Positions 4,196-43,648 of a DNA stretch of 64,000 bases are shown in pieces. This DNA is from Planctomycetota bacterium (lineage in GTDB: Bacteria > Planctomycetota > SZUA-567 > H5-PLA8): positions 19,069 to 83,068 of the forward strand of contig JAKLKQ010000025.1 of the NCBI GenBank assembly GCA_023150555.1, read 5' to 3'. Under the pieces are notes generated by a model. The model made no database searches. It worked only from the letters and a program-made list of their open reading frames with translations, and was not told the DNA's origin. Made by a program: the position numbers and the translations under genes. The first letter of the stretch is position 1. Every line of letters begins with the position of its first letter.

Positions 4196-7024
4196 CTAAC
4201 GGGTGCGCTGGCGCGGGGTGTCCAGCAGCAGGTGGCGCAAACCCTCCTCGTTGCGCGTGGTCCGCCACTGGGTATCGAATCCGGCCGACTGCCAGATCTG
4301 AACGACGGCCGACAGCGCCTTCAGATGGAAATTGCGTTCGTCCGGCGTGCTCGCCAGCACAAAGATGGCGTTGACGAGTTCCGCATCCGGGTCCGAATCA
4401 AACCGCACGCCCGGAAGGCACCGGGCGACCAGCATGGTGAACTTCTTCTGTCCGTCGAGCACGATGTGGGGAATGGCCAGGCCCGATGCCAACACCGTGC
4501 TGCTCATGCTCTCGCGGTCATGCAGCGCTGCATTGATCCGTGCCGCCGGCTGGGAGACCTCGCGCGCTAATGCCTCCGCGGCCTGCGCGAAGAAAGCCTC
4601 CCGGTCCAGTTCCTTCCGGATATCCAGGATCTGGCATTCCTTCACCATAGTGTCGAACCGGTCAAACGTGGGCTGGGCGGCAATCCGTGCGCGCGCGATT
4701 ACCAGAACGTCGCCGGCGGCCAGTTCCACGGAACCGATGCAGGGTACGACCGACCGGGCTTGGGTGCTCCCTCGCTCGATAACCAGGGGCAGGGCGGGGT
4801 TGCCGGTTGCCAGGTCGGCAAGTGCCTGATGCGGGTTTTGCACCGGCGCCTCAATGCGCTGAATTGCCACCGCGCCTTGAGAGAACCAGTGGTCCCAGTC
4901 GTTAAGGCGGACGGGACCGCCGAAGAGTTCCTTGGCGTCGTCGGGCTTGAGGAGGGCGACCTTCTCGCTCGCAGCCTTAGTCTCCACGGCCAGCCCCAAC
5001 ATGGGGACCTGGAAGACCTCGCGCAACTGGCGCACGGCCAGCGCATTGACCTCGGAGTTCGCCGTCATGGCCAAGCCGATGGCCATCGACGGGGCCTGGG
5101 CTTCGGTTAGCGCCTCGATATCCAGGGCGTTGCCAGCCATGGCGGTAAGCCCTTCGCGCCGGGCTTCCTCGATGCGCGTGGCGTTGCTGTCGATCAGGCG
5201 GACCGGCTGCGTTTCGCTGAGCAGCTTAGCCAGCGCCCGTGCCGTCGGCGTGGCGCCGACGATCAGGGTCCCCGCGCGCTGGGCGGAGGGCTTATCCCGG
5301 TCTGGGGCTGGTGCACCGTGGCCCTGGTGTTCCGCCAGGAGGGCCAGGAACTCGGTGTAGTTGTTCAGCGTCACGACCTTATCGCGGAGCGCTTCGTTGC
5401 GGAAGGTTGACGCGGCATCGCGGTACAGCTCCAGCCCCAGGCTCAGGTCCTCCTCGCGCGTAAGGATAAGGCAGACGATGCGGCACGGCTCGCCGTCCGG
5501 GCTGTCGAAATCCAGGCCGTGGCGAGAGATCCCCAGGGCGACCTGGGGCTTGGAGATGTTCGGCAGGCGCACGTGCGAAAGGGCGACGCCGTTCCCGATG
5601 CCGGAGGCCAGCAGGTGTTCGCGCGCGAGAACCTGCTTGATGACCTCGTCCAACTGGGCTCCCTCGACGCCCGATATCCGGCAGAGTTTATCCAGGGCCG
5701 AGAACCGGTTGCCGGCCGCCATCCTAGACTCGAAGCTGCGCGACCCCAGGAAATCGGTGAAGCGCCTGGCCTTCTGGCGGCGAAGGATGCGCTGCATGAT
5801 GGGGCCGGCGATGACGCTGGTTGCCAGGGCCATCACCACCAGGGCTACGAAAAGGCGCTCGGTGATCAGTTGGGCTTCCAACGCAAGCAAGGCCAGGATG
5901 ATCTCCATGGCCCCGCGTGCGTTCATGGCGGCGCCAATCGCCCAGGACTCTCGCCAGGGCAAACCGGTCCATCGGGACGCCATTCCGCAGCCGACGAACT
6001 TGCCGACGCAGGCGATCGCCAGGACAAAGAGGACAAGGGGGGCATCGAAATTGGCAACGAAGTCGATCTTCAACCCCACCGTCGCGAAAAAGAGCGGCGC
6101 GAATATAAAGGTCACAAAACTTTCCAGGGTCTGGCGCGTGCGTTCCTTCAGGTGCGTCGAATCGCCCAGGGCCACGCCAACAAGGAATGACCCGAAGATC
6201 GCATGGATCCCGATCCACTCCGTGAACGATGCGCCGAGAAGCGCGAGCACGATGGCGAACCCCAGCACTCCGCCCGGCCAACTGGCATGTGCCTGGATTA
6301 ACGGGAGGCTGTGGTGGAGGATCCACCGGCCAAGAGTGAGCATCGCGACGGCATAGGCCAGCGTGAGGCCGATGGTCGCGCCGATCGGAAACGGGCCGCT
6401 TCCTCCGCCGCCGGCCGTGCCCATCAGGCCAAGGATGACGGCGAAAATGATCCAGCCCAGCAGGTCGTCGAAGACGGCTGCTGCAATCACGGTCATTCCC
6501 AGCTCGGTGCGGTACAGATTCAAATCCATCAAAGTCTTGGCGATCACCGGCAGGGCGGAAATGGACATGGCCGTCGCCATGAACAGTGCAAACACCAGGG
6601 GGGAACTCGCCTCTGCCTTGCCAAAGGCTTCCGACGACAATACCAAGGGACCCACCCAGCCGCCTGCAAACCCGATCAGGAACGGGATGGCAATCCCGCT
6701 CACGCTTACGCCCAATGCCGATCTGCCTTTGCGGAAGATCGTGGAGAGGTCGACTTCGATACCGGCGACCAGGAGGAAAAGGGTGATCGCCACAGTGGTC
6801 AATCCTTCAAGACCCAGGCGGAATCCTTTGGTCTTTGGGAAAATCGACTCGAACACATCTGGGGCAATAGCGCCCAGCAGAGTAGGTCCCAGGAGGATGC
6901 CGGCCAGGAGTTCGCCCATCACGGCCGGCTGGTTCATTCGGCGCGAAAGCTCGCCCAGGATGCGAGCCGTCCCCAGCACGACGCCGAGCGCGAGGAACAG
7001 CGAAACGAGTTCGGAATGGCTCAT
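4196..7024 (-). CDS. CPA2/Kef-type monovalent cation:proton antiporter fused to two PTS EIIA(Ntr)-like domains and an RCK (TrkA-N/TrkA-C) domain
   Basis: Start taken at the internal Met (MSHSELVSLFLALGVVLGTARILGE...) rather than the upstream junk-like extension. It has 12-13 predicted TM helices. GIGNGVALSHVRLPN and SGLAIPHIVLDG are two PTS_EIIA_2/PtsN-type motifs. GTLIVGATPTARALAKLL is a Rossmann RCK domain. Confidence 0.8.
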   Translation of the reverse strand: MSHSELVSLFLALGVVLGTARILGELSRRMNQPAVMGELLAGILLGPTLLGAIAPDVFESIFPKTKGFRLGLEGLTTVAITLFLLVAGIEVDLSTIFRKGRSALGVSVSGIAIPFLIGFAGGWVGPLVLSSEAFGKAEASSPLVFALFMATAMSISALPVIAKTLMDLNLYRTELGMTVIAAAVFDDLLGWIIFAVILGLMGTAGGGGSGPFPIGATIGLTLAYAVAMLTLGRWILHHSLPLIQAHASWPGGVLGFAIVLALLGASFTEWIGIHAIFGSFLVGVALGDSTHLKERTRQTLESFVTFIFAPLFFATVGLKIDFVANFDAPLVLFVLAIACVGKFVGCGMASRWTGLPWRESWAIGAAMNARGAMEIILALLALEAQLITERLFVALVVMALATSVIAGPIMQRILRRQKARRFTDFLGSRSFESRMAAGNRFSALDKLCRISGVEGAQLDEVIKQVLAREHLLASGIGNGVALSHVRLPNISKPQVALGISRHGLDFDSPDGEPCRIVCLILTREEDLSLGLELYRDAASTFRNEALRDKVVTLNNYTEFLALLAEHQGHGAPAPDRDKPSAQRAGTLIVGATPTARALAKLLSETQPVRLIDSNATRIEEARREGLTAMAGNALDIEALTEAQAPSMAIGLAMTANSEVNALAVRQLREVFQVPMLGLAVETKAASEKVALLKPDDAKELFGGPVRLNDWDHWFSQGAVAIQRIEAPVQNPHQALADLATGNPALPLVIERGSTQARSVVPCIGSVELAAGDVLVIARARIAAQPTFDRFDTMVKECQILDIRKELDREAFFAQAAEALAREVSQPAARINAALHDRESMSSTVLASGLAIPHIVLDGQKKFTMLVARCLPGVRFDSDPDAELVNAIFVLASTPDERNFHLKALSAVVQIWQSAGFDTQWRTTRNEEGLRHLLLDTPRQRTR

Positions 7025-7203
7025 GTGCCTGGGTTTCCGCCGACAAAAAGGGCTTTTGGGGCGAGCGTATTGGAATGGGCGGCTGCTTGCAATTAAACGC
7101 TCGAGAATTGTCCCCAAAGGACGGGATCGTCCAAACGGATCTGGACCCGGGGCCCGGGCATGGGTATGAGAATATTTGAACCGGGGAGCTCACCCGCTGC
7201 GCC

Positions 7204-8043
7204 ATGCCTGCCGCCGACCTCGCCACCCAGAAACTCGCCTCGCGAAAGGGCGCGCGCCGTATGGCCGAGATTCCCGCGCCGGTCCTGCGCGCCATGCAGC
7301 GCGGGGAACTGGAGACGAAGACGCTCGTCGAGTGGCTCGCCGTGGACCTGCGCCTGCTGATGACGCACGTGCTGCCCGAGGCCGGCCTGGCGAAGGAACG
7401 CGCGCGCATCCTGCGTGCTTTTGCGCCGCTGGAATCCGAAGGCATCTCGAAGCGCATGAAGGGCCTGGGTGCGATCCTGCACGAGACGCTTTCGCGCCAC
7501 CCGCAGAAAAAGTCCGTCTTCGAGAGACTCGCCGCGCACCGCAGCGACATCGTGCGCAGCCTGGCGGCGTATTCCGTAGGCGCCGACGGTTCGCTCCAAC
7601 TGCGCGAACGTCTGCGCATTGCGAAGCGCTTCGCCGCCGACGGCCACATGGGCGTGCGGGAGACGGCGTGGGACAGCTTCCGCGCCTACCTGGAGCCGCA
7701 GCTGCCGCAGGCCTTGAAGCTCCTCCAGGCGTGGGTGCGCGACCGCGACTTCCGCGTGCGGCGCTGCGCAGTCGAGGCCACGCGCCCCTGCGGCGTGTGG
7801 ACCGCGCACCTCGAGACGCTGAAGGCCGACCCTTCTCCGGCCGAGGCGCTGCTGGAACCGCTCAAGGCCGATCCCGAACGCTACGTGCAGGCGTCTGTGG
7901 GCAACTGGCTGAACGACGCCAGCAAATCGCGGCCCGACTGGGTGCGCGCGCTCTGCAAGCGCTGGGAGAAACAGTCGCGTTGTAGTGAGACGAAGTGGAT
8001 CGTCAACCGCGCGCTGCGGACGCTGAAAAAGGGGAAGCGTTAG
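7204..8043 (+). CDS. DNA alkylation repair enzyme-like HEAT-repeat protein (AlkC/AlkD family)
   Basis: 279 aa, all-helical. The C-terminal VRRCAVEATRP...VQASVGNWLNDASKSRPDWV resembles the conserved AlkD-family C-terminal repeats. Confidence 0.55.
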   Translation: MPAADLATQKLASRKGARRMAEIPAPVLRAMQRGELETKTLVEWLAVDLRLLMTHVLPEAGLAKERARILRAFAPLESEGISKRMKGLGAILHETLSRHPQKKSVFERLAAHRSDIVRSLAAYSVGADGSLQLRERLRIAKRFAADGHMGVRETAWDSFRAYLEPQLPQALKLLQAWVRDRDFRVRRCAVEATRPCGVWTAHLETLKADPSPAEALLEPLKADPERYVQASVGNWLNDASKSRPDWVRALCKRWEKQSRCSETKWIVNRALRTLKKGKR

Positions 8044-8050
8044 TTCGCGT

Positions 8051-8746
8051 TCACGTGCGCGGCCGGCGCCCGCCGAGGAGGAGCCACGCCAATACAATCA
8101 GTGGGAGCACGAGGTTGGCCCAGAAAACGTAGTCCATCGAGGCGCCGCCGCTGTCTTTCTTCTTTCCACCGGAATCGGATTCCGCCTTGGCTTGGGTTGG
8201 CGGTTTCGCCGGCAGGGCTTCCGCTGCTGGGGATGCGTCGACGGGTGCTGGCGGCAATGCCTTCTCGAGCGCCGCGCGAGCCTCGCCATCCCACTTTTCG
8301 CCGCGCCATAGGATCACGCCGTCGGCGCCGACCAGCACCAGGGTGGGGAAGCGCTCGACGCTGTAATCGAGCACGCACTCGTCGCTGACTTTCGCGAGTA
8401 CAGGGTAGGGGATTGCCAGTTCCTTAACCGCCTCCCGCGCGGTCTCGGGATCGTCGGTCGATGCGCCCACCAGGACCAGGCCGCGCGGCGCGAACTCGGC
8501 GTGGAGTTTCTTTAGATCTGGAATCGCCGCAATGCAGGGCGGGCAGGTGCGGAACCAGAAATCGATCAGGTGGACCTTGCCCGCGAGTTCGACAGGCTTC
8601 TCGCCGGGCGCCAGCCAGGCCCTCCCGGCCAGGGCGGCGGCCTTGGTGCCTACCATGCCGGGATAGGCGTCGGCGGGCATTTCGGCGCGCGCGCAGGGGG
8701 CGAGCAGGGCGGTCGCGGCGGCCAGGATCGCGAAGGTGTGTGTCAT
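8051..8746 (-). CDS. TlpA/ResA-like thiol:disulfide oxidoreductase (thioredoxin fold) with C-terminal membrane anchor
   Basis: Start at MTHTFAILAAATALLAPCARA (signal peptide). FWFRTCPPC is a CxxC redoxin motif. C-terminus is SMDYVFWANLVLPLIVLAWLLLGGRRPRT, a TM helix plus a basic tail. Confidence 0.7.
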   Translation of the reverse strand: MTHTFAILAAATALLAPCARAEMPADAYPGMVGTKAAALAGRAWLAPGEKPVELAGKVHLIDFWFRTCPPCIAAIPDLKKLHAEFAPRGLVLVGASTDDPETAREAVKELAIPYPVLAKVSDECVLDYSVERFPTLVLVGADGVILWRGEKWDGEARAALEKALPPAPVDASPAAEALPAKPPTQAKAESDSGGKKKDSGGASMDYVFWANLVLPLIVLAWLLLGGRRPRT

Positions 8747-8956
8747 GCCTCGAGTTACCCCATCGGGCCGCGTTTCAGGCGCTGCGGGCGTTCTCATGAT
8801 ACGACACGCCACGAGGTGCACAACCCCGGGCCAGTCCTCACGAAAGCCGAACCTCGCGCTGGCAATTCGGCCGGGCCTGGATTAAAAGAGAACGTCTATC
8901 CGACAACGCAGATTCCCGCTGCCTGAGGCTCTGGCGCGGGTTCGTTTCAAGAGGGG

Positions 8957-11900
8957 ATGCATCGGCTCGTGCCCGTAACCGCTGCGGCACCGCGCACCGC
9001 GTATTCCGTCCGGCGCTTCTTCGCCGGCAAGGGGGTACTCGTCACCGGTTCGACCGGCTTCCTGGCGAAGGCCGTCGTCGAGAAGGTGTTGCGCGACCTG
9101 CCCGAGGTCGAGAAAATCTACTTGCTGATCCGGCCTCGCGCGCGCCCGAACGGCTCGCTGATCGACCCCACCGAGCGCCTGCGCGACGAGATCCTGCGCA
9201 ACTCGGTCTTCGGCCCCTTGCGCGAAAAGCATGGCGCGGACTTTGAACGCTGGATCACCGGCCGCATCGTCTGTGTGCCCGGCGACCTGACGCACGAGCG
9301 CCTGGGTCTGGACGAGGCCGCCTTCGCCGAACTGGCGAGCAACGTCCGCGTCGTGATCAACTCCGCCGCGACGGTGGTCTTCGACGAGCGCCTGGACCTG
9401 GCACTGAACATCAACACGCTCAGCCCGCTGCGCCTGCTGGAACTCGCCCAGGCCGCGAATGCGACCTACATCCATATCTCCACCGCCTACGTCAGCGGCA
9501 TGCGCAAGGGCTCGGTCCCCGAGCGCCTGCTGGAGCCGCTCGAGGCCATCGACGCGCAGCTGAAGCCCGGCGAGCCGCGCCCCAAGGAGTTCGACGTCTT
9601 CAATGAGATCGCGCGCCTTCAGGAACAGTGCGAGACGATCAAGGCCGACTGCGAGGTCCAGCGCCTCAAGCGCAACCTGGCGCCGGAAAGCGAAGAAGCC
9701 CGCGTGATGCTTCGCCGCGCACTGGTCTCCGCCGGCATGCGCCGAGCGCGCAGCCTGGGCTGGAACGACACCTACACCTACACCAAGTTCCTGGGCGAGC
9801 AGCTGGTGCGCGCGCGCCACGGCAAGGTGCCCACTGCGATCGTGCGCCCGTCGATCATCGAGTCCAGCCTGCGCGAGCCCGAACCGGGCTGGCTCGACGG
9901 CCTGCGTATGGCCGACCCGCTGATCGTCGGCTTCGGCAAGGGCCGCCTGGCCGACTTCCCCGCCGGGCGCAACGTGGTGCTGGACGTCATCCCCGCGGAC
10001 CTGGTCGTCAACGCGATCCTGGCCGCCGCGGCGGACCTGGCCGAGCGCGAAGGCGAGTTCAACCTGTTGCACGTCGCGTCCAGCAGCGAGAACCCGCTGG
10101 TGTTCGAGAACCTCTTCCAGACCGTCCGCGACTACTTCCTCAAGCATCCCATGCTCGACCGCGCCGGCAAACCCGTGCGCGTGCCGCAGTGGAAGTTCCC
10201 GACCGTCGAGCACTACAAGCGCCGGCTGACGAACACCTACCTGCGCCCCGTGAAGGCCATCAACGCGCTCGTCGACGGGCCTCTGCCCATGCCGGGCATG
10301 CGCAAGCTGCGCAGCCGCCTCCGGACCATGAGCAACGCGATGGAGCAGCTGCTCTATTACGTCGATATCTACGGGCCCTACACGAACCTGGACTGCCGCT
10401 TCGAGACGTCCAATGCGCGGAAGGTATTGGAGCGCATGGACGAGGCCGAGCGCGACGCCTTCGATTTCGACCCGCGCAAGATCCGCTGGCGCCACTACCT
10501 CCAGGACGTCCACATCCCCGGCCTGAAGCGCAATATCCTCCGCATGGACCAGCCCTTGCGCGCCGGCGCAGGCGAAGGCGACCTGCTGGCCGAAGAAGGC
10601 GCGCGCAGCGCCGACCGCATCAGCGCCGCGATCCACGGCGTGCCGCAGACGATCGTCGAACTGGCCGCGCGCAGCGCCGACCGCTTCGGCGGTAGCCCGT
10701 TTCTGGAGATCCAGCGCAAGGAAGGTGGGCGCCTGCGCCTGACGCATGCCGAAAGCTTCGCGCTTGCCGAGCAGTGGGCCCGGAAACTCTACGCCAAGCT
10801 GGATCTGCAACCCGGAGACCGCGTCGTGCTGTGGGGCGAGAACTGCCCCGAATGGGGCGTCGCGTACCTGGCATTCGTGCGCGCCGGCGCCGCCGTCGTT
10901 CCGCTGGACCGCCAGACGCCCAGCGACGAGGCCGCGCGCCTGGCGAAGTTCGTCGAGGCCAAGGCTGCGGTCCTGACGCCTTCGGTGCTGGCGGAAGCGC
11001 CCGATTGGCAAGGCGGCAACAACGGGCTGCCCGTGCGTTTGAACCTGTGCGCCGAACTGGAGCCCTTCGACGGCAGCCGCTGGCCGCTGCCCGATGCGCC
11101 GGTGGATGGCCCCGCGCCCAAGGCGCCCAACCCGCAATCGCTGGCGAGCATCCTCTTCACCAGCGGCACCACCGTCTCGCCCAAAGGCGTGATGCTGAGT
11201 CACTACAACTTCGTCGCCGACGCGTTGTCCGTCGCCGAGGTGCTCGAGCCGCTGCCCAACGACCGCTTCCTCTCCGTGCTGCCGTTGCACCACGCCTTCG
11301 AGTTCACCGGCGGCTTCCTGACGCCGATGTTCGGCGGCTCGGCGGTGCATTACCTGGAGACCCTGCGCGCGCCTGAAGTGCTCGAGACGATGCGCCGCGT
11401 GGGCGTGACCGTCGTGCTGGGCGTGCCGCGTCTGTACAAACTCTTCGCCGACGCGATCCAGGCCAAGGTCACCGAAGGCGGCGCCCCCGCGAAGGTGGCG
11501 ATGGAGATGATGGCCGGCATGGCTGGCGCCGCCGAGATGATGGGCAGCGAGCAGGCCAGAAAGAAGATCTTCTCGAAGGTCCACGAGGCCTTTGGCGGCA
11601 AGCTGCGCCTGTTCGTCAGCGGCGGCGCGGCGCTGGACCCCAGCCTCTTCCTCTTCTTTCAGCGCTTCGGCATCGCCATCGCCGAAGGCTACGGCCTGAC
11701 CGAGACCGCTCCGATCCTGACCGTCAACCCGCTGGGCGCGCCCAAGCCCGGCAGCGTGGGCCTGCCGCTGCCCGGTGCCGAAATCCGCGTACAGCACCCC
11801 GACAGCGCCGGCGTCGGCGAGGTCTGGGTGCGCGGGCCGATGGTAATGCAGGGCTACTGGCGCAACCCCGAGGCCACCGAATGGGCCTTCGAGGACGGCT

Positions 11901-13399
11901 GGTTCAAGACCGGCGACCTGGGCCGCCAGGACCGCGACGGCTACCTGTACATCACCGGCCGCGTGAAGGACACCATCGTCAGCTCGGCGGGCAAGAAGGT
12001 CTTCCCCGACGAGCTGGAAGTCAAGCTGCGTGGGCTGCCGCGCGTGAAGGAGTACTGCGTGATCGGCCTGCCGGCGCGTGGCGGCGGCGAAGCCGTGGCG
12101 TTGGTGGCCGTGCCCGAACTGGACAGCAAGCCCAACCGCAAGCGGATCCGCGAGGCCGTCGAGAAACTCAACAAGGAACTGCCCAGCTACCAGCGAGTCG
12201 CGCGCATCGAGTTCCTGGCCGAGGACCTGCCCAAGACCAGCACGTTGAAGGTCAAGCGCAGCAAGGTCCGCGACCGGTTCCTGGCCGCCGGCGAAGGCGC
12301 CGAGGCACTAGAGACCGGCGCCGCCGAAGCCGCCTCGCCGGCGCAGACCCAGGGCCGTGCGTACCGCGAGGTCGTCGAGGCCATCGCCGAGATCACCGGG
12401 CTGGATCCCGAGGAGATCGGTCCCGAGCGCAAACTCGAGTTGGACCTGGGCCTGGACAGCATCGGCCGCGTGGACCTGATCGGGAAACTGGAGCTGCGCC
12501 TGAACGTCGGCATTCCCGAGGAAGCCGTCGCGAAGCTGTGGACGGTGCAGGACGTCGCGCGCGTCGCCGAAGAAGCCGTCGCGAAGGGCGGCGCGCACGT
12601 CAGCGGCGCCAAGCGCGCGGTCACCACCGTCGGCGACCGTGTGTGGGAGAAGCGGCGCGGCGGCGAGGGCGGCAACGGCGACCACCTGCTGCAGCCGTCG
12701 ATCTCGAAGGCCGTCGTCGGCGGGGCGCTCACGACCACCGCGAAGGTCCTCTTCAACACATGGCTGCGCATCGACGCATACGGCATGGAGCACCTGCCGC
12801 TGACCGGCGCGTACATCCTGGCTTCGAACCATTCGAGCCACCTCGACACTGCCGCCGTACGCGAGGTGCTGGGCGGCCGCGCGGCTTCTCTGCACGTGAT
12901 GGGCGCCAAGGACTACTTCTTCGATACGCGATTCAAGAGCTGGTTCTTCAGCTCCGCCTTCAACGTGCTGCCGTTCGAGCGCGAGGAGAGCAGCCTCGAC
13001 GGCCTGGCGCTGTGCCGACGCGCCCTGGAAGACGGAAAGCCGCTGCTGATCTTCCCCGAAGGCACGCGCTCGGTCACCGGCAAACTGCAGAGCTTCAAGT
13101 CCGGCGTCGGGCTGCTGGCCCTGGAACTCGACTACCCGATCATCCCCGTGTGCCTCTCGGGCACCTACGAGGCCCTGCCGAAGGGCCGCAGCGTGCCGCG
13201 CCCCAGCCACGTGCAGGTGCGCTTCGGCCCGCCCGTCGACTTCAGCCGCCTGCGCGCGCGCCGAAAGGCCGCACAGCAGGAGAAGGATGCAAAGGCCAAG
13301 GGCGGGAAGAAGGAGAAGGCCCGCAGCATCGACCTGTACCGCGAGGCCGCCGAACAGATCCGCCAGGCCGTCGCGCGGATGAAGCCCGGCGGCGCGTAG
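8957..13399 (+). CDS. multidomain lipid-biosynthesis enzyme: fatty acyl-CoA/ACP reductase (FAR) - acyl-AMP/CoA ligase - ACP - 1-acyl-sn-glycerol-3-phosphate acyltransferase (ElbD-like)
   Basis: N-terminus [20 protein letters not shown]...YLLIRPR is the NAD(P)-binding male-sterility/FAR domain. [18 protein letters not shown] and [10 protein letters not shown]...WFKTGDLG are the AMP-binding ligase. [11 protein letters not shown] is the phosphopantetheine attachment Ser of an [13 protein letters not shown] and FPEGTRS are the PlsC HxxxxD and FPEGTR motifs. Confidence 0.8.
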
Positions 13400-13419
13400 T
13401 CCGCAGGCGTAAGCCTCGC

Positions 13420-14124
13420 ATGTCCGAATCCCCCGCGCCGTCCGCACCTTCCGCGCAGGCCACGCGCCGCGCCGCGTACTTCGACGTCGACGGTACGCTG
13501 GCGCGCAGCAACATCGTCGGCCCTCTGCTCTTCTTCCGGAAAAAGCTGATGCCGCCGCTGGTGCGCGAACTCTGGCTGGCCACCATCCCCGCGCGCGGGC
13601 TCTACTGGCTCGCCCTCGACAAGCTGAGCCGCGACGCCAGCAACCGTTCGATCTATGCGCAGTACGCGGGCCTGGACGCCGCCCGCGTGCGCGCGCTCGC
13701 CGCCGAACTGCACGAGGCCTTCTGGCGTCCGCGCCTGTTGCCGCAGGGCCTGAAGCGCGTCGCCGAACTGCGTGCGCAGGACGTGGCGCTGGTCTTCGTG
13801 ACGGGCTCGATCGATTTCCTGGTCGAGCCGCTGGCGAAGGAACTGGGCGCGGAGTTGATCGCGCCGAGCCTGGAAGAGAAGGGCGGCCGGTTCACCGGGC
13901 GCCTGACCGGCCCGCCGCTGGCCGGCACGCACAAGGCCGATGCGTTGCAGCAGCACGCCAGGCGGATGGGTGTCGATCTTTCCGCCAGCCACGCCTTCGG
14001 CGACGCGATCGGCGACCTGCCGATGCTCAAATGCGTCGGCTATCCAGTGGCCGTCAATCCCGGGAGGCGCCTGGGCGCAGTCGCACGCAAGCGCGGCTGG
14101 CCGGTGGAAACATGGACGGTCTGA
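13420..14124 (+). CDS. HAD superfamily subfamily IB hydrolase (phosphoserine-phosphatase-like)
   Basis: Motif I YFDVDGTL, K-containing motif III, and terminal GDAIGDLPML (motif IV). Start chosen at MSESPAPS (13420). The longer 747-aa ORF in the track is an out-of-frame overlap with the preceding gene. Confidence 0.7.
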   Translation: MSESPAPSAPSAQATRRAAYFDVDGTLARSNIVGPLLFFRKKLMPPLVRELWLATIPARGLYWLALDKLSRDASNRSIYAQYAGLDAARVRALAAELHEAFWRPRLLPQGLKRVAELRAQDVALVFVTGSIDFLVEPLAKELGAELIAPSLEEKGGRFTGRLTGPPLAGTHKADALQQHARRMGVDLSASHAFGDAIGDLPMLKCVGYPVAVNPGRRLGAVARKRGWPVETWTV

Positions 14125-14134
14125 AGGCTGCCGG

Positions 14135-15016
14135 CTACCGCTTTGCGTAGGCCTTCCAGGCAGATTCGATCTGCTCGGCATCGCCGGTACCCAGGAAGAC
14201 GAAGAGACGGTAGCGCAGCTTGAGCGCCTCGCCCTTCGCGAGTTCGAAGGGTCCTTTGAGCTGTGGGGCGGGGTTGATCATGCCCTGGTTGTCGACGCGC
14301 CAGCGGTTGGGGTACCGGAAGTTCGAGGGATGCTCCAGAATTGCGACGCCCGCGTAGGCGTAGGTCTTGCTCGTCTCTTTGGAGTACACGCCCAGGCCGT
14401 CGACGGGCTGCGCCACGCTGGTCCAGCGCGCATCCTGCTCCGCGCAAGCGTCGCCTTCCTGGCCTTCGCTGTTCAGGTGCCTGCGCGCGTCCTTGTGGCC
14501 CGTCAGACGCGCACTCAAGCCGCCGTACTTCGACTCGCCGAAAGCCAGCGCTTCCTTTGTCGCACGGATCTCCCAGTCGAGGTCGAACGCGTAACTCGTC
14601 TCGAAGTCCTGCGCCGCGATACTGACGCTCTGGCGCTCTTCTAAGAGTACGCGCCCATCGGGGCGCAGCCATTCGTTTGCCGCGGTGAACGCGATGCGGA
14701 CGGGGGAGGACTCGAGGTTCTCCAAGCCGCGGTGGCGCATCGCGCCTCGAATCTCTTCCGCGTACACGGCGTCGCCGCAGCACCAGAAGTCGAGTCCGTT
14801 GACGGCGTTCAGGCCGGTGAAGATCCCGTATTGCCAAGGATGGTCGGCGGGGCGGAAGCGCGTGAGGGTGTACTCGCTGCCGGGCGCGTTGAGCGGATGG
14901 ATGTGCGTGCGGAAGCGCGCGTCGGTCGAATAGAAGAAGACGCGCCGCGGGCCGTCCGGGGTCTTCGCTGCGACGTCCAGGCCCTTGGGCGATTGCCGGT
15001 AGTCGAGGTCGCTCAT
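14135..15016 (-). CDS. hypothetical protein, possibly PmoA/DUF6807-family
   Basis: Start at MSDLDYRQSPKG after trimming an Arg/Pro-rich spurious extension. Sits 8 bp downstream of, and co-directional with, the large secreted protein. Family assignment is from memory of HPWQYGIF/LDFWCCGD-like motifs and is weak. Confidence 0.4.
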   Translation of the reverse strand: MSDLDYRQSPKGLDVAAKTPDGPRRVFFYSTDARFRTHIHPLNAPGSEYTLTRFRPADHPWQYGIFTGLNAVNGLDFWCCGDAVYAEEIRGAMRHRGLENLESSPVRIAFTAANEWLRPDGRVLLEERQSVSIAAQDFETSYAFDLDWEIRATKEALAFGESKYGGLSARLTGHKDARRHLNSEGQEGDACAEQDARWTSVAQPVDGLGVYSKETSKTYAYAGVAILEHPSNFRYPNRWRVDNQGMINPAPQLKGPFELAKGEALKLRYRLFVFLGTGDAEQIESAWKAYAKR

Positions 15017-15024
15017 TGCGGCAC

Positions 15025-18000
15025 CTATTTCTCGGTGCTCAGCAGCACGCCCAGCGCCGCCGGGGACGGATCGCCCTGCGGCGCGCCGCCGTGCCAGGCG
15101 GTGCGTTCGGGCAAGCCTTTGGCGGTGTGGCGCTGGCGCGCGAAGGCCGCGCGCAGCACGCGCCCGGCGGCCGGCGGGCCCTTCAGGCCCAGGTCGCGCC
15201 AGGGGACGGCGAGTTCCAGGACCCAGCCGGTCTCGGTGCGCGCGGTGCGGGCCAGGGCGTGCCCGTTCCACGCGACGTCGCCGTTGCGCGAGTCGCGAAG
15301 GTTGCCGAGGACGTCGAAGCGCAGGCGCAGCGTCGCGGCCGGCTGTTCGGCGCTGAAGAGCGTGACTTCAAACCAGTCGCCTTCGTCGATCTTCGCGTCG
15401 TCGCGTTTCATCGCGAGTTGCTTGCGCGCGCGCAGCGCGTCGAACTCGGGATCGCCCAGGTACGCGGCGAGCAGCAGGTTCTCGCCGTCGCGACGCACGG
15501 CCACGGCCGTCTGCGTCGAAGCCGCGGGATCGGTGCCGTCGTTGGCGCTGAGGTACGCGGAGACCTGCTGGTTCTTCCAGCCGGGGTCGTCGGTGCGGCC
15601 GTCGACGGTTACGGCGCCGGGGGCCGGGGGCACGGCGGCGACCGGAAGCACGAAGCGGAAGGCCTGCTCGTCGCCGGCGGCCTCGCTGAGCGCCAACTGC
15701 AGGACGCCGGCGGCCGCGGGCAGTTCGGCGCTGCGGGCCTGAAGTTTGACGACGAAGGGGAGGGGCTGCGGGCGCGGGCTGGGGTGGGCGCGCCGGTCGG
15801 GCGGCGCCATCTCGGCGATCTCAGCGCGCCAGCCCTTGCTGCACTTGGCGACGAGCATCGGGGGCGCCTGCAGGCCTTCGCCGGCGGGGCGCAGATGCAT
15901 GGGCCACTCGACGTTCAGTTCGCCGCGCTCGTTCACCTCCACGCGCAGGCCTTCGCCGCGCGGCTCGGGGCGCCACTGCTGCGTGACGCCGGCCATCGGC
16001 AGCAGGCCCGCGTACGGCGCGTTGTCCTTCAGCAGTTGGAACTCGCGGCGCAGCCCGCTGAGCAGGTCGGTGGCGACGCAGCGGTACAGCCCGGCGGGTT
16101 CGTTGAGGCCCAGGCTGAAGGTGCCTTCCCATCGCCCGGCCTCGGCGATGACGGCGCGGCTGTAGTGCGGCAGGTGGCGGCCTTGCGGGTCGAAGAACTC
16201 CAGGCGCAACACGTGGCGACCCAGTTCCTCGCCGTCGTCTCCGGTCTCGGCACCTTCCTTGTCCGCGTCGATCTCGAAGGCGAGCCGGAAGGCGCCCAGC
16301 GGGTCCAGGCGCCGCACTTTCGCCTCGAGGGCGCGCACGCGGTAATCCAGCGCGGCCAGCACCGCCGCGGCGTCGGGCGCCAGGCGCGCGCTGCATTCGG
16401 TGCCCAGGCCCAGGTACGTGCCGGTGCGCACGTCGTACCAGTGGCAGGTGTGGTCGTAGACGGCGCGCACGGCGGTGGATTCGGTTGCAAGCGCGGGGGC
16501 CAGCACCGCGGCCAGCGCCACAGGGCCGTCGCGCCAGAGTTTGCGCGCGGCGCCGCGCAGGGCGTGGCCGGAAGCGTCGCGGACGCTGAGCGCCGGTTCA
16601 CCCACGGCTTCCTCCAGAAGGTTGCCGACAAGAATGCGCAGGGCCTCGCCGCCGGTTGGCTTCCCGAATTTCGCGAGATACTCGCGCCGGCCGATGCCGG
16701 CCATGCGGAAGTCGGTCTCGGCCTTTGCGCTTAGTTCGGGGTAATCCTGCACCGCGAGGTTCAGATAGACGAAGCGCCCCACCCCCGCACTGTGCACGGC
16801 CAGCGCGTCGGCGCCGCCGGCGGTCTTGGCGTGGCTCCACGCGCCGGTGGCGCGCAGGCCGGGTTCGTTGACGCGCAGTTCGTCCGATTCAGGCCCCAGG
16901 TCGACGGGACGCGCGGGGTCGAACAGGCGCACGCGCGCGCTGGCGGCCTCGCCCATCCATGCGCCGGCGATCTCATGCGCCCATTGGTGCTCGCGGCGCA
17001 CGCCGAAGTCGCGGTCCAGGATTCCGATGTAGGGTTGTGTGGCCAGGCCGCGGTAGCGCCGGCCGTATTCGTCGTAGGTCCCGCACTGCGAGTCGGCTAG
17101 GACGACGCCTTTCAGTCGCGCATACGCCTGCAGCGCCTTGGCTTCCTTTGCGCCCAGGCTGAGGACCTTGGGCAAGATCAGCACCTTCACGTCCAGGCCG
17201 GAGCCCTTGGCGAGCAGCTCCTGCTCGTCCACGAAGCGCGCCTCGAGTCCCAGATCGGAAAGCAGCGCGCGCCAGGCTTCGATCGCGCGCAGGCCCGTCC
17301 CGTCCGCGGGGTTGGCCAGGTCGGCCCAGGTGCTGCCGCGCAGCGCGGCGTCGCGCAGCCAGTGCAGCGCGAGGCTGCGCGGCGAGTAGTAGATGCCGAT
17401 GCGCGGCTTCGGGGCCGGCGCCCCGTTGCGCAGCAGCGTCAGACCGTTGGCCAGCGCGTCGAGGTCCTCGATCAACGGGGCGGCGTGGCTCGGTCGCAGG
17501 CCGTCGGCGTCGGCGAAGAGCCCGTCGGCGTTGACCACCACCGTGCCGGCGTCGCCGCGCATCCAGCCGTCCCACAACTGGCGGCGCGCCTGGCTGCCCG
17601 AGACGTTTGTCAGGTTCACCGCGCGGATGCCGGAATGGAAGCTGGCGAAGAGTTCGCGGACAGGCCCGCGGTCCACGGGCACGTACCAGTCCAGCAGCGG
17701 CGCGACGCGCGCGGCGTCCCAGCCGCCCCAGGGCGAGGGCTCGCACGCGCCGGTCAGCCCGCACAGCGCGCCGGGATCGGCCGCGCGCACGGTATGTGTA
17801 AACTCGTTGAGCAGCCGCGCGAAGGCGAAGTCGAGGAAGGCGTGCCATTCCAGCCACGCCGCGCAGTTCTCGCGCCCGGGCGCGGCCAGCTCGCTGGGCT
17901 TGAGCGTGAACGACGCGTGGCCGTCGACCTCGGGGAGTTCCTCGTCTTCGTTGCCGCCGCGCAGGATCTCCATGCGCTCGGCGAAGCGCGGCTGCAGCGC

Positions 18001-19023
18001 GCCGAGCATCTCGTCGGTGGACGGTGGCCGGACCTCGCTCCAGTCCTTGAAGCCCGTGCGCCAGACCGCGTTCAGTGCCTGCAGGTCCAGGTAGCGCCGC
18101 TTCAGCCAGGCCTGGAAGAGTTCCAGCGTCTCGGCGGAGGGCAGCAGGTCCAGCGCGCGCGTAGTGCGGGTGAGCGAGAGTTCGTGGCCGACCGAGTACC
18201 CCAGCGGGCGATCGGCCGCCAGCGACCAGGTGCGGTCGTGCAGGTCTTTCAGCGCGCGGTCGAGCGCCGCCTGTTCAAACAGAGGCGGCACGCGCGTGAG
18301 GCCCTCGATCGCGCGCGCGGCGAACTGCGCGTGGAGCGTGTTCCATCGCCCGTCGTCGAAGGCGTGCAGCGGATGGCCTTGCTCGCCCAGCGCGGTCTGC
18401 AGCCGGTAGGTCCAGGCGTCGGCGGAATCGTTGACCGCGGGCGCCGTGGGGTCCAAGAAGTCGTCGATGCGCCCGTTGACCGGCAGGCGCGCGATCTGTG
18501 CCCTGGCCTCGTCGGACTCGAAGCGCTGGCTGCGCGGCAGCAGCACGGCGAAGCCGTCCCAGTTCCTGCGCTGGGGCACGACCGTGAAGCGGGCCTCGGC
18601 GGCGAAGCGCCAGGCCGGATCGTTCTTCTTCGTACGCGGCGCGGTGACCAGCACCAGGCGGTGCTCGATGCCGAAGCCCCCGCGCAGCGGGACTTCGAAA
18701 GAGACGGGCTCGTTCGAGGCCTCCTTCGAGGCCGGGTCGATCTCGACGTGGCTGATTACGCGTCCCAGGCCGTCGATGAAAAGGATGCGCAGCAGGTTTT
18801 CGGCCGGATGCCAGTCGCCGCGGAAACTCGCCTTCAGCACCGCGTTCTCGTCGAAGCGCGTGCCCGGAAGTTCCAGCGTTAGCGCGTTCGGCAGCGCGAC
18901 GGGTTGTGCGGGAGCATTCTCGGCCGCGCGCGCGCCCGCGCAGGCCGCGGCCAGACACAGCAGCAGGGCCGCCACGCGCGCCGCGGCGGCACGCAAGACG
19001 CTACCGTACCGGAGGACCCCCAT
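15025..19023 (-). CDS. large secreted glycoside-hydrolase-like protein (GH42M-like trimerisation/amidotransferase-like region and a C-terminal CBM9-like region)
   Basis: Start at MGVLRYGSVLRAAAARVAALLLCLAAACAGARA (signal peptide). About 1330 aa. The internal VKVLILPKV...YARLKGVVLADSQCGTYDEYGR segment resembles the beta-galactosidase middle domain. Specific activity is unknown. Confidence 0.5.
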   Translation of the reverse strand: MGVLRYGSVLRAAAARVAALLLCLAAACAGARAAENAPAQPVALPNALTLELPGTRFDENAVLKASFRGDWHPAENLLRILFIDGLGRVISHVEIDPASKEASNEPVSFEVPLRGGFGIEHRLVLVTAPRTKKNDPAWRFAAEARFTVVPQRRNWDGFAVLLPRSQRFESDEARAQIARLPVNGRIDDFLDPTAPAVNDSADAWTYRLQTALGEQGHPLHAFDDGRWNTLHAQFAARAIEGLTRVPPLFEQAALDRALKDLHDRTWSLAADRPLGYSVGHELSLTRTTRALDLLPSAETLELFQAWLKRRYLDLQALNAVWRTGFKDWSEVRPPSTDEMLGALQPRFAERMEILRGGNEDEELPEVDGHASFTLKPSELAAPGRENCAAWLEWHAFLDFAFARLLNEFTHTVRAADPGALCGLTGACEPSPWGGWDAARVAPLLDWYVPVDRGPVRELFASFHSGIRAVNLTNVSGSQARRQLWDGWMRGDAGTVVVNADGLFADADGLRPSHAAPLIEDLDALANGLTLLRNGAPAPKPRIGIYYSPRSLALHWLRDAALRGSTWADLANPADGTGLRAIEAWRALLSDLGLEARFVDEQELLAKGSGLDVKVLILPKVLSLGAKEAKALQAYARLKGVVLADSQCGTYDEYGRRYRGLATQPYIGILDRDFGVRREHQWAHEIAGAWMGEAASARVRLFDPARPVDLGPESDELRVNEPGLRATGAWSHAKTAGGADALAVHSAGVGRFVYLNLAVQDYPELSAKAETDFRMAGIGRREYLAKFGKPTGGEALRILVGNLLEEAVGEPALSVRDASGHALRGAARKLWRDGPVALAAVLAPALATESTAVRAVYDHTCHWYDVRTGTYLGLGTECSARLAPDAAAVLAALDYRVRALEAKVRRLDPLGAFRLAFEIDADKEGAETGDDGEELGRHVLRLEFFDPQGRHLPHYSRAVIAEAGRWEGTFSLGLNEPAGLYRCVATDLLSGLRREFQLLKDNAPYAGLLPMAGVTQQWRPEPRGEGLRVEVNERGELNVEWPMHLRPAGEGLQAPPMLVAKCSKGWRAEIAEMAPPDRRAHPSPRPQPLPFVVKLQARSAELPAAAGVLQLALSEAAGDEQAFRFVLPVAAVPPAPGAVTVDGRTDDPGWKNQQVSAYLSANDGTDPAASTQTAVAVRRDGENLLLAAYLGDPEFDALRARKQLAMKRDDAKIDEGDWFEVTLFSAEQPAATLRLRFDVLGNLRDSRNGDVAWNGHALARTARTETGWVLELAVPWRDLGLKGPPAAGRVLRAAFARQRHTAKGLPERTAWHGGAPQGDPSPAALGVLLSTEK

Positions 19024-19397
19024 CCCCCGGACGTATGGATGCCTCGAGACGTCCGCCGTCACGGAGCCTCCCTGGCAAATGCAAGATGGCACGTATCCGG
19101 AGTCTACGGGTTGGCCGTGCAATTTCCATGAAGGGTGAAGGGGCGCGGATAGAAAAATACCATTCCCCATCTTTGGATTTTGTTTGGTTCCGCATCGTGC
19201 GGTGTTGCCGAAGGGCTCCGTAGGGTCAACGACGGCACGGTCCATCCCCACACCCCCAGAGAATCGGCACGATGCGCCACGCGGCATCCTCCGATGCGGG
19301 ACCATCCCCGTATCCTTGTGCAACGGCCAGAGTTACATTACAATCGAGGCGCATATCGGGTCACCAAAGCTTCCCAAACGCAGGAGTCCAAGCCGCG

Positions 19398-26450: not shown

Positions 26451-27485
26451 TTACGCGACCGCGAGCACGATCTTTCCGAACTGCTCGCCTTGCTCCATGC
26501 GCGCCGCCGCGTCGGGGTATTGGTTCAGCGCGAAGACACGGTCAAGCACCGGCTTCAGGTGCGCGTTGGCCGCCGCGCGCAGAAGGTTGCGGAAGTCCTC
26601 CTGGCTGCCCATCGTTGAACCCATCAGCGTCTGGTGGTTCCAGTACAGCATCTGCAGGTTCACCGTCGCGGTGGGGCCGCCGGTGACGCCGCACGTGACC
26701 ATGCGCCCGCCGCGGCGCATCGCCTTCACCGAGACCGGAAGCGTCGGCGCGCCGACGCTGTCGACACACAGGTCCACGCCGCCGCCGCCCGTCAATTCGC
26801 GCGCCGCCGCGCCGACGTCCTCCGTCGTGCGGTAGTTGATGCCGTGCGCGGCGCCCAGTTCGCGGGCCTTCTCGAGCTTGAAGTCGCTGGAACTGGTCAC
26901 GATCGCGCGGCCGCCGGTGCCGTGCACCAGTTGCAGCGCGGCCAGCGCCACGCCGCCGCCGATGCCGTGGATCAGCACCGTCTCGCCGGGCTTGTAGCGT
27001 GCGCGCGCGAAGAGCATGTGCCACGCGGTCAGGTGCGCCAGCGGCAGCGCCGCCGCCTCGTGCCATTCCAGGTGCTCGGGCTTTGGCTCGACGTTGCACG
27101 CCGGTACGACGACCTTCTCGGCGAAGGTCCCCTGGTTCTGGAAGCCGGTCAGCCGGAAGCCTGGGCACTCGCTGTGGTCCCCGCGCCGGCAGTATTCGCA
27201 GGTCATGCAGCTGACGCCCGGATTGACGACGACCTCGTCGCCCACCGCCACGCCCGTCACGCCTTCGCCCAGCGCGTCGACCACGCCCGCCGCGTCGCTG
27301 CCCAGCACGTGGGGTTCCTTCAGTTCCAGGCCTGGGCGGCCCTTGCGCACCCAGATGTCCAGGTGGTTCAGCGCGGCGGCCTTCACCGCGACGCGCACCT
27401 GGCCCGGGTCGGGCTCGGGCGTCCGGACCTCGCCGAACTCCAGGACCTCGCGGCCGCCGAAGGTCTCGATGAATACCGCGCGCAT
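26451..27485 (-). CDS. zinc-dependent alcohol dehydrogenase / quinone oxidoreductase (MDR superfamily)
   Basis: GSDAAGVVDALGEGV, a structural-Zn Cys cluster (CMTCEYCRRGDHSEC), and Rossmann HGIGGGVALAALQL. Confidence 0.85.
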   Translation of the reverse strand: MRAVFIETFGGREVLEFGEVRTPEPDPGQVRVAVKAAALNHLDIWVRKGRPGLELKEPHVLGSDAAGVVDALGEGVTGVAVGDEVVVNPGVSCMTCEYCRRGDHSECPGFRLTGFQNQGTFAEKVVVPACNVEPKPEHLEWHEAAALPLAHLTAWHMLFARARYKPGETVLIHGIGGGVALAALQLVHGTGGRAIVTSSSDFKLEKARELGAAHGINYRTTEDVGAAARELTGGGGVDLCVDSVGAPTLPVSVKAMRRGGRMVTCGVTGGPTATVNLQMLYWNHQTLMGSTMGSQEDFRNLLRAAANAHLKPVLDRVFALNQYPDAAARMEQGEQFGKIVLAVA

Positions 27486-27553
27486 GGCTGGACTCCTTAT
27501 AAGGGTGTGTGGCCTACCTTCCTTCTATAGCAATGGCCGAACGGCGCAAACGG

Positions 27554-29723: not shown

Positions 29724-30076
29724 AATACCTTCTGGGGTAGCTCGAAAGGTCCTCGCCGCGGGCCCCAATATAAGGAGGCAGCGGTGCTCCAGTGCACCTA
29801 ATCCCGTCCGCGCGCCGAACTTGTAAAGCCTAACCAGAATTTCATTTGCGCCGGAACCCCACCTCGTGCAGTATTTTGTGCTCGGGGTGCGGAATTTTCG
29901 GATTTCGGCCCCGATCCTTAGATACTTTTCCGGCGCTTTGCTGATTATCCATGCCGGAACAGGGGTCCGCGCAACGCGGCTGCAGGGGGGTATCGAAGAC
30001 GTCGACGGTCCGCCCTGCTCCACGCGCATGTGCGCGCGCCGCGGCCTGATCCGCAGCGCGGGGAGGATACGAGACT

Positions 30077-30844
30077 ATGGAACAGTTCCTAGAAGTCGCC
30101 TTCAACCTGCCGACCGTGATCTACACGGTGCTGCTGATCTTCGTGCTGCTCTTCTGGGGCTCGGTGCTGGCCGCGGGCCTCGATCCACACATGTTCGACG
30201 CGCATGTCGAGGTGCCGGCGCATGTGGACGTACCGAGCGACGTGCACGTGGATGCCCATGTCGACGGTCACGTTGACGCGCATGGAGAGGTGCATGCCGA
30301 GAAGGACGTGGCGGTACACGGCGGCGGGCACTGGGTGATGGTCCTGTTGACGACGCTGAACATCGGAACGGTGCCGGTGACGGTGGTGCTGAGCTGTGCG
30401 GTCTTCGCGGCCTGGACCACGAGCATGGCTCTGAACCTTTTCGTCGCCGAAAATGTCGCAATCTACCTGCATCCGATCGTCTGGATCGCGGCGGCGCTGG
30501 CGAGCGCGGGGGTGACGGGGCTCATCGTCGCCGCACTGGCCACCCGTCCGCTGAGACCGCTCTTCAAGAACTACACGCAGACGGCGCAAGAGGACCTGAT
30601 CGACCAGATCTGCACGATCCGCACCAGCCACGTGGACGAGAAGTTCGGACAGGCGGAATACGAAACCGACGGCGCGCCGCTGATCCTCTCGGTCTGCTGC
30701 CGGCGCAAGAACAACGACCTGACCAAGGGCGTTAAAGCGGTGATCGTCGGCTACAACCGGAGAACCGACACGTACGAGGTAGCCAAGCTGGATCCCGAAA
30801 GCTCCAGGAAGAAGTCCGTAAAGAGGACGGCGAAGGCCGACTGA
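30077..30844 (+). CDS. NfeD/YqiJ-like inner-membrane protein with C-terminal OB-fold and a His/Asp-rich insert
   Basis: N-terminal TM helices, a HVDxHVDxHVD repeat, more TM helices, then a C-terminal soluble beta domain (KGVKAVIVGYNRRTDTYEV). RBS gggagga. Directly upstream of the flotillin gene, as in yqiJ-yqiK. Confidence 0.7.
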   Translation: MEQFLEVAFNLPTVIYTVLLIFVLLFWGSVLAAGLDPHMFDAHVEVPAHVDVPSDVHVDAHVDGHVDAHGEVHAEKDVAVHGGGHWVMVLLTTLNIGTVPVTVVLSCAVFAAWTTSMALNLFVAENVAIYLHPIVWIAAALASAGVTGLIVAALATRPLRPLFKNYTQTAQEDLIDQICTIRTSHVDEKFGQAEYETDGAPLILSVCCRRKNNDLTKGVKAVIVGYNRRTDTYEVAKLDPESSRKKSVKRTAKAD

Positions 30845-30913
30845 ACTGCAAACAAGAGAGAGGCGGACGGCGGCCCTAGTCGGGCGGCTGGACGCGAACA
30901 AAGGAGAGCAGCA

Positions 30914-33088: not shown

Positions 33089-33194
33089 GCGAAGTGCCGG
33101 TCATGCTGGGCTGCGCCCGTGTGTCACGAAGGACATGCGGGCGCGGCGCTTAGCGGCCTGCGCACCCCGGTTCCGAAAGCGATGACCGAGTCCC

Positions 33195-40272: not shown

Positions 40273-40338
40273 AGGCGTTCTGGAACTGGCGTTTCACTTC
40301 ACGGACGGATCATCTACCAGAGGGGGCGCGAACGCAGC

Positions 40339-43500: not shown

Positions 43501-43533
43501 CCCGCCGTACTCTCCCTTTGGTCCCAAAACGTC

Positions 43534-43559
43534 GCGGCCCGCAGGCCGCTCCTCATTTT
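43534..43559 (+). terminator. rho-independent terminator after the kinase-FGE gene
   Basis: gcggcc-cgca-ggccgc hairpin followed by tcctcattttg. Confidence 0.5.
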
Positions 43560-43648
43560 GCGTTCTCGAAGGGGTATATACGGCATCCGGAATACGATGC
43601 GTCTGCCCGGCAACATCCCTTCAGTCCCGGCCCAAGGAGCAACCGCTC

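Follow-up and report, generated by a model that had tools for sequence, protein, structure and literature searches.

A two-gene ElbD/ElbB-type module predicted to make alkyl glycerolipids in a probable Planctomycetota bacterium

The 64,000-nucleotide stretch of contig JAKLKQ010000025.1 analyzed here (hereafter the window) derives from a probable Planctomycetota bacterium and contains two neighboring genes, one for a 1,480-amino-acid (aa) protein combining a fatty acyl reductase (FAR), an acyl-AMP ligase, an acyl carrier protein (ACP) and a PlsC-type acyltransferase, and the other for a HAD-IB phosphatase. We propose that these two genes constitute an ElbD/ElbB-type module that turns free fatty acids into alkyl (ether) glycerolipids, a reading to which we assign a probability of roughly 0.6. 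We favor it because the domain set and order are those of an ElbD orthologue from Myxococcales and of the published ElbD of Myxococcus xanthus; because the homology extends over the full length; because all the catalytic motifs are kept, with the FAR aligning end to end with a solved reductase; because the HAD is homologous to elbB and the two genes are neighbors in 8 of 12 loci of their clade; because other loci of that clade add genes for Lar_N proteins, Zn-dependent alcohol dehydrogenases (Zn-ADHs) and diacylglycerol (DAG)-kinase-like proteins; and because elbD mutants of M. xanthus lack both alkyl and vinyl ether lipids (PMC9131029, PMC13012113). An earlier note on this DNA had suggested an ether- or alkyl-lipid role, which survives as the best available hypothesis.

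Domain architecture of the ElbD-like protein

The earlier note's description of a single open reading frame (ORF) holding four activities is borne out by the ORF itself, its translation and its Pfam domains (Table 1). The window is GC-rich throughout (about 0.59 to 0.72 in 2-kb windows), and the third-position GC of the ORF, 0.91, is like that of the real genes of the window. The ORF is far beyond a chance occurrence, since 117 of the 120 best database clusters retrieved with the 1,480-aa protein combine FAR, ligase and acyltransferase domains in proteins of about 1,344 to 1,552 aa. The true start could be GTG 8969 instead of ATG 8957, because the purine-rich AGAGGGG at 8950-8956 directly abuts the latter.

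Table 1. Coordinates of the gene pair, its encoded domains and its immediate flanks in the window
Feature	Position	Strand	Basis
elbD-like gene, 1,480 aa (FAR, acyl-AMP/ACP ligase, ACP, PlsC-type acyltransferase)	8957..13399	+	ORF, translation, Pfam, >100 full-length homologues
FAR catalytic (Rossmann) domain, NAD_binding_4, residues 29-354	9041..10018	+	Pfam E=1e-62; PDB 7eoz alignment
FAR C-terminal "Sterile" domain, PF03015, residues 451-529	10307..10543	+	Pfam E=1.4e-12; inside 7eoz match
Adenylate-forming fatty-acid ligase, residues 572-1096	10670..12244	+	Pfam AMP-binding 572-968 E=6e-75, AMP-binding_C 1019-1096; PDB ligase matches
Integral acyl carrier domain (PP-binding), residues 1138-1202	12368..12562	+	Pfam E=1e-11
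PlsC/AGPAT-type acyltransferase domain, residues 1271-1401	12767..13159	+	Pfam Acyltransferase E=2e-22
elbB-like HAD-IB phosphatase, 234 aa	13420..14124	+	TIGR01490; Pfam HAD E=2e-34
Intergenic region, presumed promoter region, with purine-rich AGAGGGG at 8950-8956	8822..8956	.	Sequence read; between divergent redoxin and elbD-like genes
Redoxin gene, divergent	8051..8821	-	5' of elbD-like gene
DUF6807 gene, convergent	14135..15271	-	Downstream of HAD gene

The N-terminal part (residues 17-530) matches the solved fatty acyl-CoA reductase PDB 7eoz end to end (E=3e-95) and displays TGSTGF (residues 30-35), Ser175/Thr176 of the active site and Y273xxxK277. The ligase that follows matches many solved acyl-CoA and acyl-AMP ligases in the PDB and possesses the A3, A5 (GYGLTE), A7 (TGD), A8 (GRVKD) and A10 (PKTSTLK) motifs. 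In the carrier domain the phosphopantetheine attachment site is Ser1168, within LGLDSIG, and the C-terminal acyltransferase, whose closest solved relative is the Thermotoga PlsC (PDB 5kym, E=2.5e-16), displays blocks I (NHSSHLD, with His1292/Asp1297), II (DYFF), III (FPEGTR, residues 1366-1371) and IV (PIIPV). Hence the LGLDSIG, HxxxxD and FPEGTR motifs quoted from the sequence earlier are all in place. In an alignment of 21 diverse full-length homologues, the TGxTGF, Ser175/Thr176 and Tyr273/Lys277 of the FAR are invariant, as are the A3, A5, A7 and A8 motifs of the ligase, Asp1167-Ser1168 of the carrier domain and the His1292/Asp1297 and P-E-G-x-R of the acyltransferase. The earlier note had named the loss of the reductase's catalytic Ser and YxxxK as a sign of a nonreductive role; both are present and conserved.

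Comparison with ElbD and the elb operon

ElbD of M. xanthus has been described as beginning at its N terminus with a FAR1-like domain, after which come ACS, ACP and AGPAT-like acyltransferase domains (review PMC9131029; also PMC13012113). The same order is seen in a Myxococcales metagenome-assembled genome (MAG) locus, L006, where the genes run HAD (220 aa), Lar_N protein (541 aa), FAR-ligase-ACP-acyltransferase protein (1,456 aa) and an epimerase of the short-chain dehydrogenase/reductase (SDR) type (332 aa), which is the elbB-C-D-E arrangement. The L006 ElbD (7986-12356) has a Pfam domain order identical to that of the window protein and aligns with it at 32% identity over 1,469 aa (623 bits), in support of the ElbD-like enzyme that the earlier note had suggested. 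The notion that the window protein is a permuted variant, with its reductase displaced to the N terminus, does not hold; its order is the canonical one. The window protein thus shares with the ElbD family the domain set and order, homology over the full length and intact catalytic residues in every module.

The four-gene elbB-C-D-E arrangement is also found in five further loci (L003, L008, L009, L013 and L014), with partial versions, several of them cut by a contig end, in L004, L005, L007 and L029. In these elb-type operons the ElbC position is occupied by a Lar_N-domain protein and the ElbE position by an NAD-dependent epimerase/dehydratase-type SDR. Among the matches listed from our genome scan, full-length homologues come from Polyangiaceae, Myxococcales, Bradymonadaceae and Acidobacteriota (including a Pyrinomonadaceae MAG); M. 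xanthus is not among these matches, which are MAG representatives only. Likewise, the best 120 clusters retrieved with a profile of eight ElbD sequences from Myxococcota and Acidobacteriota include no Myxococcus, the named members being Pyrinomonadaceae, Acidobacteriota and unclassified MAGs.

As claimed earlier, a HAD-IB gene lies directly downstream, on the same strand and 20 nucleotides past the stop codon of the elbD-like gene. Its product scores 118.5 bits on the TIGR01490 HAD-IB model (cutoff, 98.3), has the HAD motif I as DVDGT (residues 23-27 of the translation) and finds its nearest solved relatives among phosphoserine-phosphatase-type HADs. It is 33 to 38% identical to the HADs in the ElbB position of elb-type operons (L003, L005, L006, L008, L009, L013, L014 and L029), 41% identical to the HADs found 3' of ElbD-like genes in the sister clade described below and 69% identical to the HAD of L088, a Planctomycetota MAG locus. 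On these similarities we take it to be an ElbB homologue. The remark that such hydrolases are frequent partners of PlsC-type acyltransferases is therefore too generic, as the relationship is specifically to elbB of elb-type operons.

The pair accordingly parallels ElbD and ElbB of the M. xanthus elbABCDE operon and their orthologues in Myxococcota and SD4 Acidobacteriota in having the same four modules, order and catalytic motifs, with an ElbB-like HAD alongside. The HAD gene, however, lies two genes upstream of elbD in the elb operon but directly downstream of it here, and the operon has Lar_N (elbC) and SDR (elbE) genes, neither of which is found in the 64-kb window. Of the proteins that accompany ElbD in the operon, ElbB is thus co-encoded here, whereas ElbC and ElbE are not. 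A further difference lies in the A3 motif of the ligase (residues 734-744): the canonical Gly (TSGTTGxPKGV) is kept in the four Myxococcota/Acidobacteriota ElbD sequences inspected, whereas the window protein, about 31% identical to that clade, has TSGTTVxPKGV, and Val, Leu or Met takes this place in the six sister-clade sequences inspected.

Among the ORFs scanned with Pfam over the rest of the window, none encodes an AGPS-type flavoenzyme, a Lar_N protein, a DAG kinase or any further glycerolipid function, and no SDR adjoins the pair; the sole other lipid-related gene among the scanned ORFs encodes an undecaprenyl-diphosphate synthase. As the scanned rest of the window holds no other glycerolipid gene, the functional unit in the window is the two-gene pair.

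Relatives and the sister clade

Metagenome contigs of SRR17665590 and SRR17665588 encode an identical protein with the same neighbors. Next in similarity are proteins of Planctomycetota MAGs (57 to 65% identity), followed by those from Verrucomicrobiota, Armatimonadota and Latescibacteria (39 to 57%). In many related proteins from other phyla (e.g., L010 to L012), the match is confined to the ligase-to-acyltransferase part and leaves out the FAR. A neighbor-joining tree of 47 full-length sequences (1,395 columns, midpoint-rooted) splits into two groups, although as a distance tree without support values it gives a split that is indicative only. One group is the Myxococcota/Acidobacteriota clade with the classical operon; the other, mostly from Planctomycetota and Verrucomicrobiota MAGs, comprises the window protein and sequences from Planctomycetota, Verrucomicrobiota, Armatimonadota, Latescibacteria, L001 (Acidobacteriota) and L002 (Phycisphaerae). 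The module would thus, on this indicative evidence, belong to a sister clade of the characterized Myxococcota/Acidobacteriota ElbD. With the sister-clade sequences compared, the window protein shares 38% identity or more, and the active-site residues of all four modules are kept in both clades.

Among 12 sister-clade loci, the HAD gene is directly 3' of the elbD-like gene in eight (the window, L001, L002, L086, L088, L089, L090 and L091) and absent in four (L083, L084, L085 and L087). As the other flanking genes differ among these loci, the elbD-like gene and the HAD gene emerge as the conserved unit. The accompanying genes, in varying arrangements (e.g., L002 13658-15856; L084 4970-9840), include those for a Zn-ADH of about 400 aa (L001, L002, L084 and L086), a Lar_N protein 40 to 51% identical to ElbC-position proteins (L084 and L086) and a DAGK_cat lipid kinase (L001, L002 and L084). 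The presence of these ElbC-like, Zn-ADH and DAG-kinase-like genes points to glycerolipid chemistry, and none of the three has a homologue in the window. An ElbE-type SDR was found in none of the sister-clade loci examined; it may be, to speculate, that the Zn-ADH takes its place. The window itself encodes a 357-aa Zn-dependent dehydrogenase (26451-27524, minus strand) 12 kb from the gene pair. We rejected it as an ADH of the type seen in these clusters: the ADHs accompanying ElbD-like genes elsewhere had no tblastn match in the window at cutoffs of 1e-6 and 1e-5.

One could go further and postulate that the sister clade (Planctomycetota, Verrucomicrobiota, Armatimonadota and others) possesses a functionally distinct pathway, in which the ElbD-like protein and the HAD form the core, the Zn-ADH, Lar_N and DAG-kinase-like proteins are optional, and the core alone, without AGPS, ElbC or ElbE, would be enough for alkylglycerol lipids or a different fatty-alcohol-derived glycerolipid. 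We consider this doubtful. If true, it would point to unrecognized bacterial sources of the nonisoprenoid alkyl glycerol ethers found in the environment.

Predicted pathway

Taking these findings together, the pair can be tentatively placed in a pathway. By homology with M. xanthus ElbD, for which the ACS and ACP activities have been shown in vitro (PMC9131029), the ligase would adenylate a long-chain fatty acid and load it as a thioester on its own ACP, at Ser1168. The N-terminal FAR would then reduce the tethered acyl group with NAD(P)H to a fatty aldehyde or alcohol, and the PlsC-type domain would pass the tethered acyl group to an acceptor of the glycerol-phosphate type or the dihydroxyacetone-phosphate type. 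A 1-O-alkyl ether bond would next connect the alcohol or aldehyde to the backbone, a step that is AGPS-independent in Myxococcus and for which the window has no Lar_N/ElbC-like or ElbE-like partner. Finally, the HAD-IB protein would dephosphorylate an intermediate such as 1-alkyl(-2-acyl)-glycerol-3-phosphate.

Weighing the alternatives

Several points weigh against an ether-lipid function of the pair. For the source organism itself, the role is a prediction from the genes. No in vitro work has shown FAR or acyltransferase activity for any ElbD, and in the case of M. xanthus acyltransferase activity was not detected (PMC9131029). Inactivation of elbE reduced ether lipids in M. xanthus (PMC9131029), and the window has no elbE; the ElbC and ElbE of L006 and the Lar_N proteins of L084 and L086 found no tblastn match in the 64 kb, though another part of the genome might carry elbC and elbE. 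Identity between the window protein and 10 sequences of the Myxococcota/Acidobacteriota clade is about 31% (30 to 33%), and the protein groups apart from them in the tree; in the comparisons with ElbD, Myxococcota orthologues with elbB-C-D-E synteny served as a proxy for the M. xanthus protein itself (MXAN_1528; ABF88003.1 / Q1DC43). Further, cultured Pontiella carry ElbD homologues, yet ether lipids were not detected in them, and the authors of that study urge caution (PMC11868695).

The Pontiella result would equally suit a pathway with no ether bond, whose products would be fatty alcohols, wax esters or other neutral lipids. Here a fatty acid captured by the ligase and ACP would be turned into the alcohol by the FAR, and the acyltransferase would form an ester with an alcohol or with a glycerol acceptor. 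Such a product is also consistent with the complete FAR of the alcohol-forming type, with both NAD_binding_4 and Sterile domains over the 7eoz match, and with the lack of an ether-forming enzyme (AGPS, Lar_N/ElbC) in the window scans. Nevertheless, we think it unlikely. PlsC-type acyltransferases with the HxxxxD motif use glycerol-phosphate-type acceptors, and the C-terminal domain, nearest to 5kym, is expected to do the same; the adjoining phosphatase, conserved in eight of 12 loci, implies a phosphorylated intermediate that wax synthesis would not need; and the homologous M. xanthus enzyme, so far the only one with such evidence, is tied genetically to ether lipids.

Less probable still are two further possibilities. 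In one, the protein would act in Aas-like fatty-acid salvage and lysophospholipid reacylation: exogenous fatty acid would be put on the ACP by the ligase and used by the acyltransferase on lysolipids, with the FAR as an accessory. Aas (2-acylglycerophosphoethanolamine acyltransferase/acyl-ACP synthetase) likewise joins an adenylate-forming fatty-acid ligase to a PlsC-type acyltransferase, NCBIfam models for acyl-[ACP]--phospholipid O-acyltransferase are among the matches, and the many relatives from other phyla that align only from the ligase to the acyltransferase would fit such a role. However, the window protein scores 233 bits on NF006386, far under the equivalog cutoff of 1,221; the model positions matched (acyltransferase at about 419-614, C-terminal part of the ligase at 891-1137) indicate that the acyltransferase precedes the ligase in Aas-type models, the opposite of the order here; and these models have no counterpart to the FAR. 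On these grounds we rejected membership of the window protein in Aas. The invariance of the catalytic residues of the FAR across the 21 homologues further implies that the reductase is under selection, which argues against an accessory part for it.

In the other, the reductase would halt at the fatty aldehyde and feed a different product, either by the vinyl-ether route first proposed for ElbD or toward a nonglycerolipid metabolite. Wild-type M. xanthus contains i15:0 aldehyde that elbD mutants lack, with fatty alcohols not detected (PMC9131029), and the window protein has a weak match to an NCBIfam thioester-reductase domain. Against this, the vinyl ether bond of M. xanthus is made from an alkyl ether precursor by CarF and not by ElbD (PMC9131029), and the FAR is of the full-length type, with the C-terminal Sterile domain. 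We hence regard such a product as a long shot, on a par with the Aas-like role, and retain alkyl glycerolipid synthesis by an ElbD/ElbB-type module as the preferred reading.

Related systems and published homologues

Another parallel is offered by FARAT, the fusion of FAR and GNPAT known as MXAN_1675 in M. xanthus and from eukaryotic forms in Tetrahymena and Dictyostelium, which provides the AGPS route with its two substrates, the alcohol and the acyl-backbone one (PMC13012113, PMC9131029). Like the window protein, FARAT couples an N-terminal FAR to a C-terminal glycerolipid acyltransferase in one polypeptide. However, it has only the FAR and GNPAT-like domains and in M. xanthus is encoded beside AGPS (MXAN_1676), whereas in the window protein about 630 residues of ligase and ACP are inserted. 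Conceptually, the latter is a FARAT with a self-loading ligase-ACP insert. We rejected a direct assignment to the MXAN_1675/FARAT type beside AGPS: the ligase and ACP (residues 572-1202) intervene between the FAR and the acyltransferase, and the scanned window ORFs include no AGPS.

Homologues of ElbD have been recorded by genome mining in several phyla. In the Black Sea they were found in 33 of 267 Planctomycetota MAGs and 43 of 270 Verrucomicrobia MAGs (PMC11868695); others are known from Poribacteria, Acidobacteriota and Latescibacterota (bioRxiv 10.64898/2026.06.23.733905); and SD4 Acidobacteria have an elbB-elbE cluster (PMC13159169; ElbD homologues there also in bioRxiv 10.64898/2026.06.23.733905). 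The closest parallel to the pair is provided by clusters of sponge symbionts that consist of only elbD and elbB homologues (GCFs 5-10), while others have DAG kinases (bioRxiv 10.64898/2026.06.23.733905); as in the window, the minimal pairing occurs without the rest of the operon. These published homologues come from genome mining, other habitats and mostly other phyla, and we liken them to the window pair by description only. The architecture, the pairing with a HAD and the occurrence in Planctomycetota are hence already on record. The earlier note's statement that this chemistry is essentially undescribed outside myxobacteria stands for the biochemistry only, and not for genome mining, which documents the genes in Acidobacteriota, Poribacteria, Latescibacterota, Planctomycetota and Verrucomicrobia.

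With comparable homologues cataloged before, the locus reveals no new architecture and no new mechanism. Its interest lies elsewhere. Nonisoprenoid ether lipids are environmental biomarkers with poorly known producers, to which the locus adds a candidate, and the sister clade is biochemically untouched. The compact elbD-elbB arrangement is convenient for heterologous expression and offers a test case for the ether-forming step of the ElbD route, a puzzle in Myxococcus as well.

Flanking and other genes of the window

A consensus scan of 8700..14400 found no sigma-70-type promoter site, and the single terminator-like site in it is on the opposite strand within the elbD-like ORF and hence uninformative. 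Upstream of the pair, in addition to the redoxin gene, there are a DNA-alkylation-repair-like gene and a gene for a Na+/H+ exchanger. The exchanger, a 973-aa protein (4196-7117, minus strand), is fused to a TrkA_N domain and two PTS EIIA-2 domains, and in L083 and L088, two loci of Planctomycetota MAGs, the ElbD-like gene likewise has related Na+/H+ exchangers among its flanking genes. The flanks that L088 has in common with the window encode the exchanger, a protein of about 1,340 aa that lacks recognized domains, and an M20 peptidase. Along with the 69% identity of the HADs, these common flanks make a planctomycete the most likely source of the window. The second of these flanking products, a protein of about 1,340 to 1,430 aa without a significant Pfam domain, lies beside the M20 peptidase gene in both places (window 15025-19323, minus strand; L088 17158-21183), the two being matched by position only.

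Farther along, an apparent three-gene operon (30050-38726, plus strand) encodes a 264-aa protein without a Pfam domain, a 747-aa SPFH/Band-7 protein and a 1,843-aa protein with DUF3686, DUF7902 and AAA domains, of which DUF3686 has the label "ATPase involved in DNA repair." A PADLOC search of this operon gave no convincing match (only mad8, E=9e-4). Finally, at 40273-46474 (plus strand) a Ser/Thr protein kinase is fused to an FGE-sulfatase (formylglycine-generating-enzyme-like) domain and is followed by an overlapping 1,003-aa ORF without a Pfam domain.

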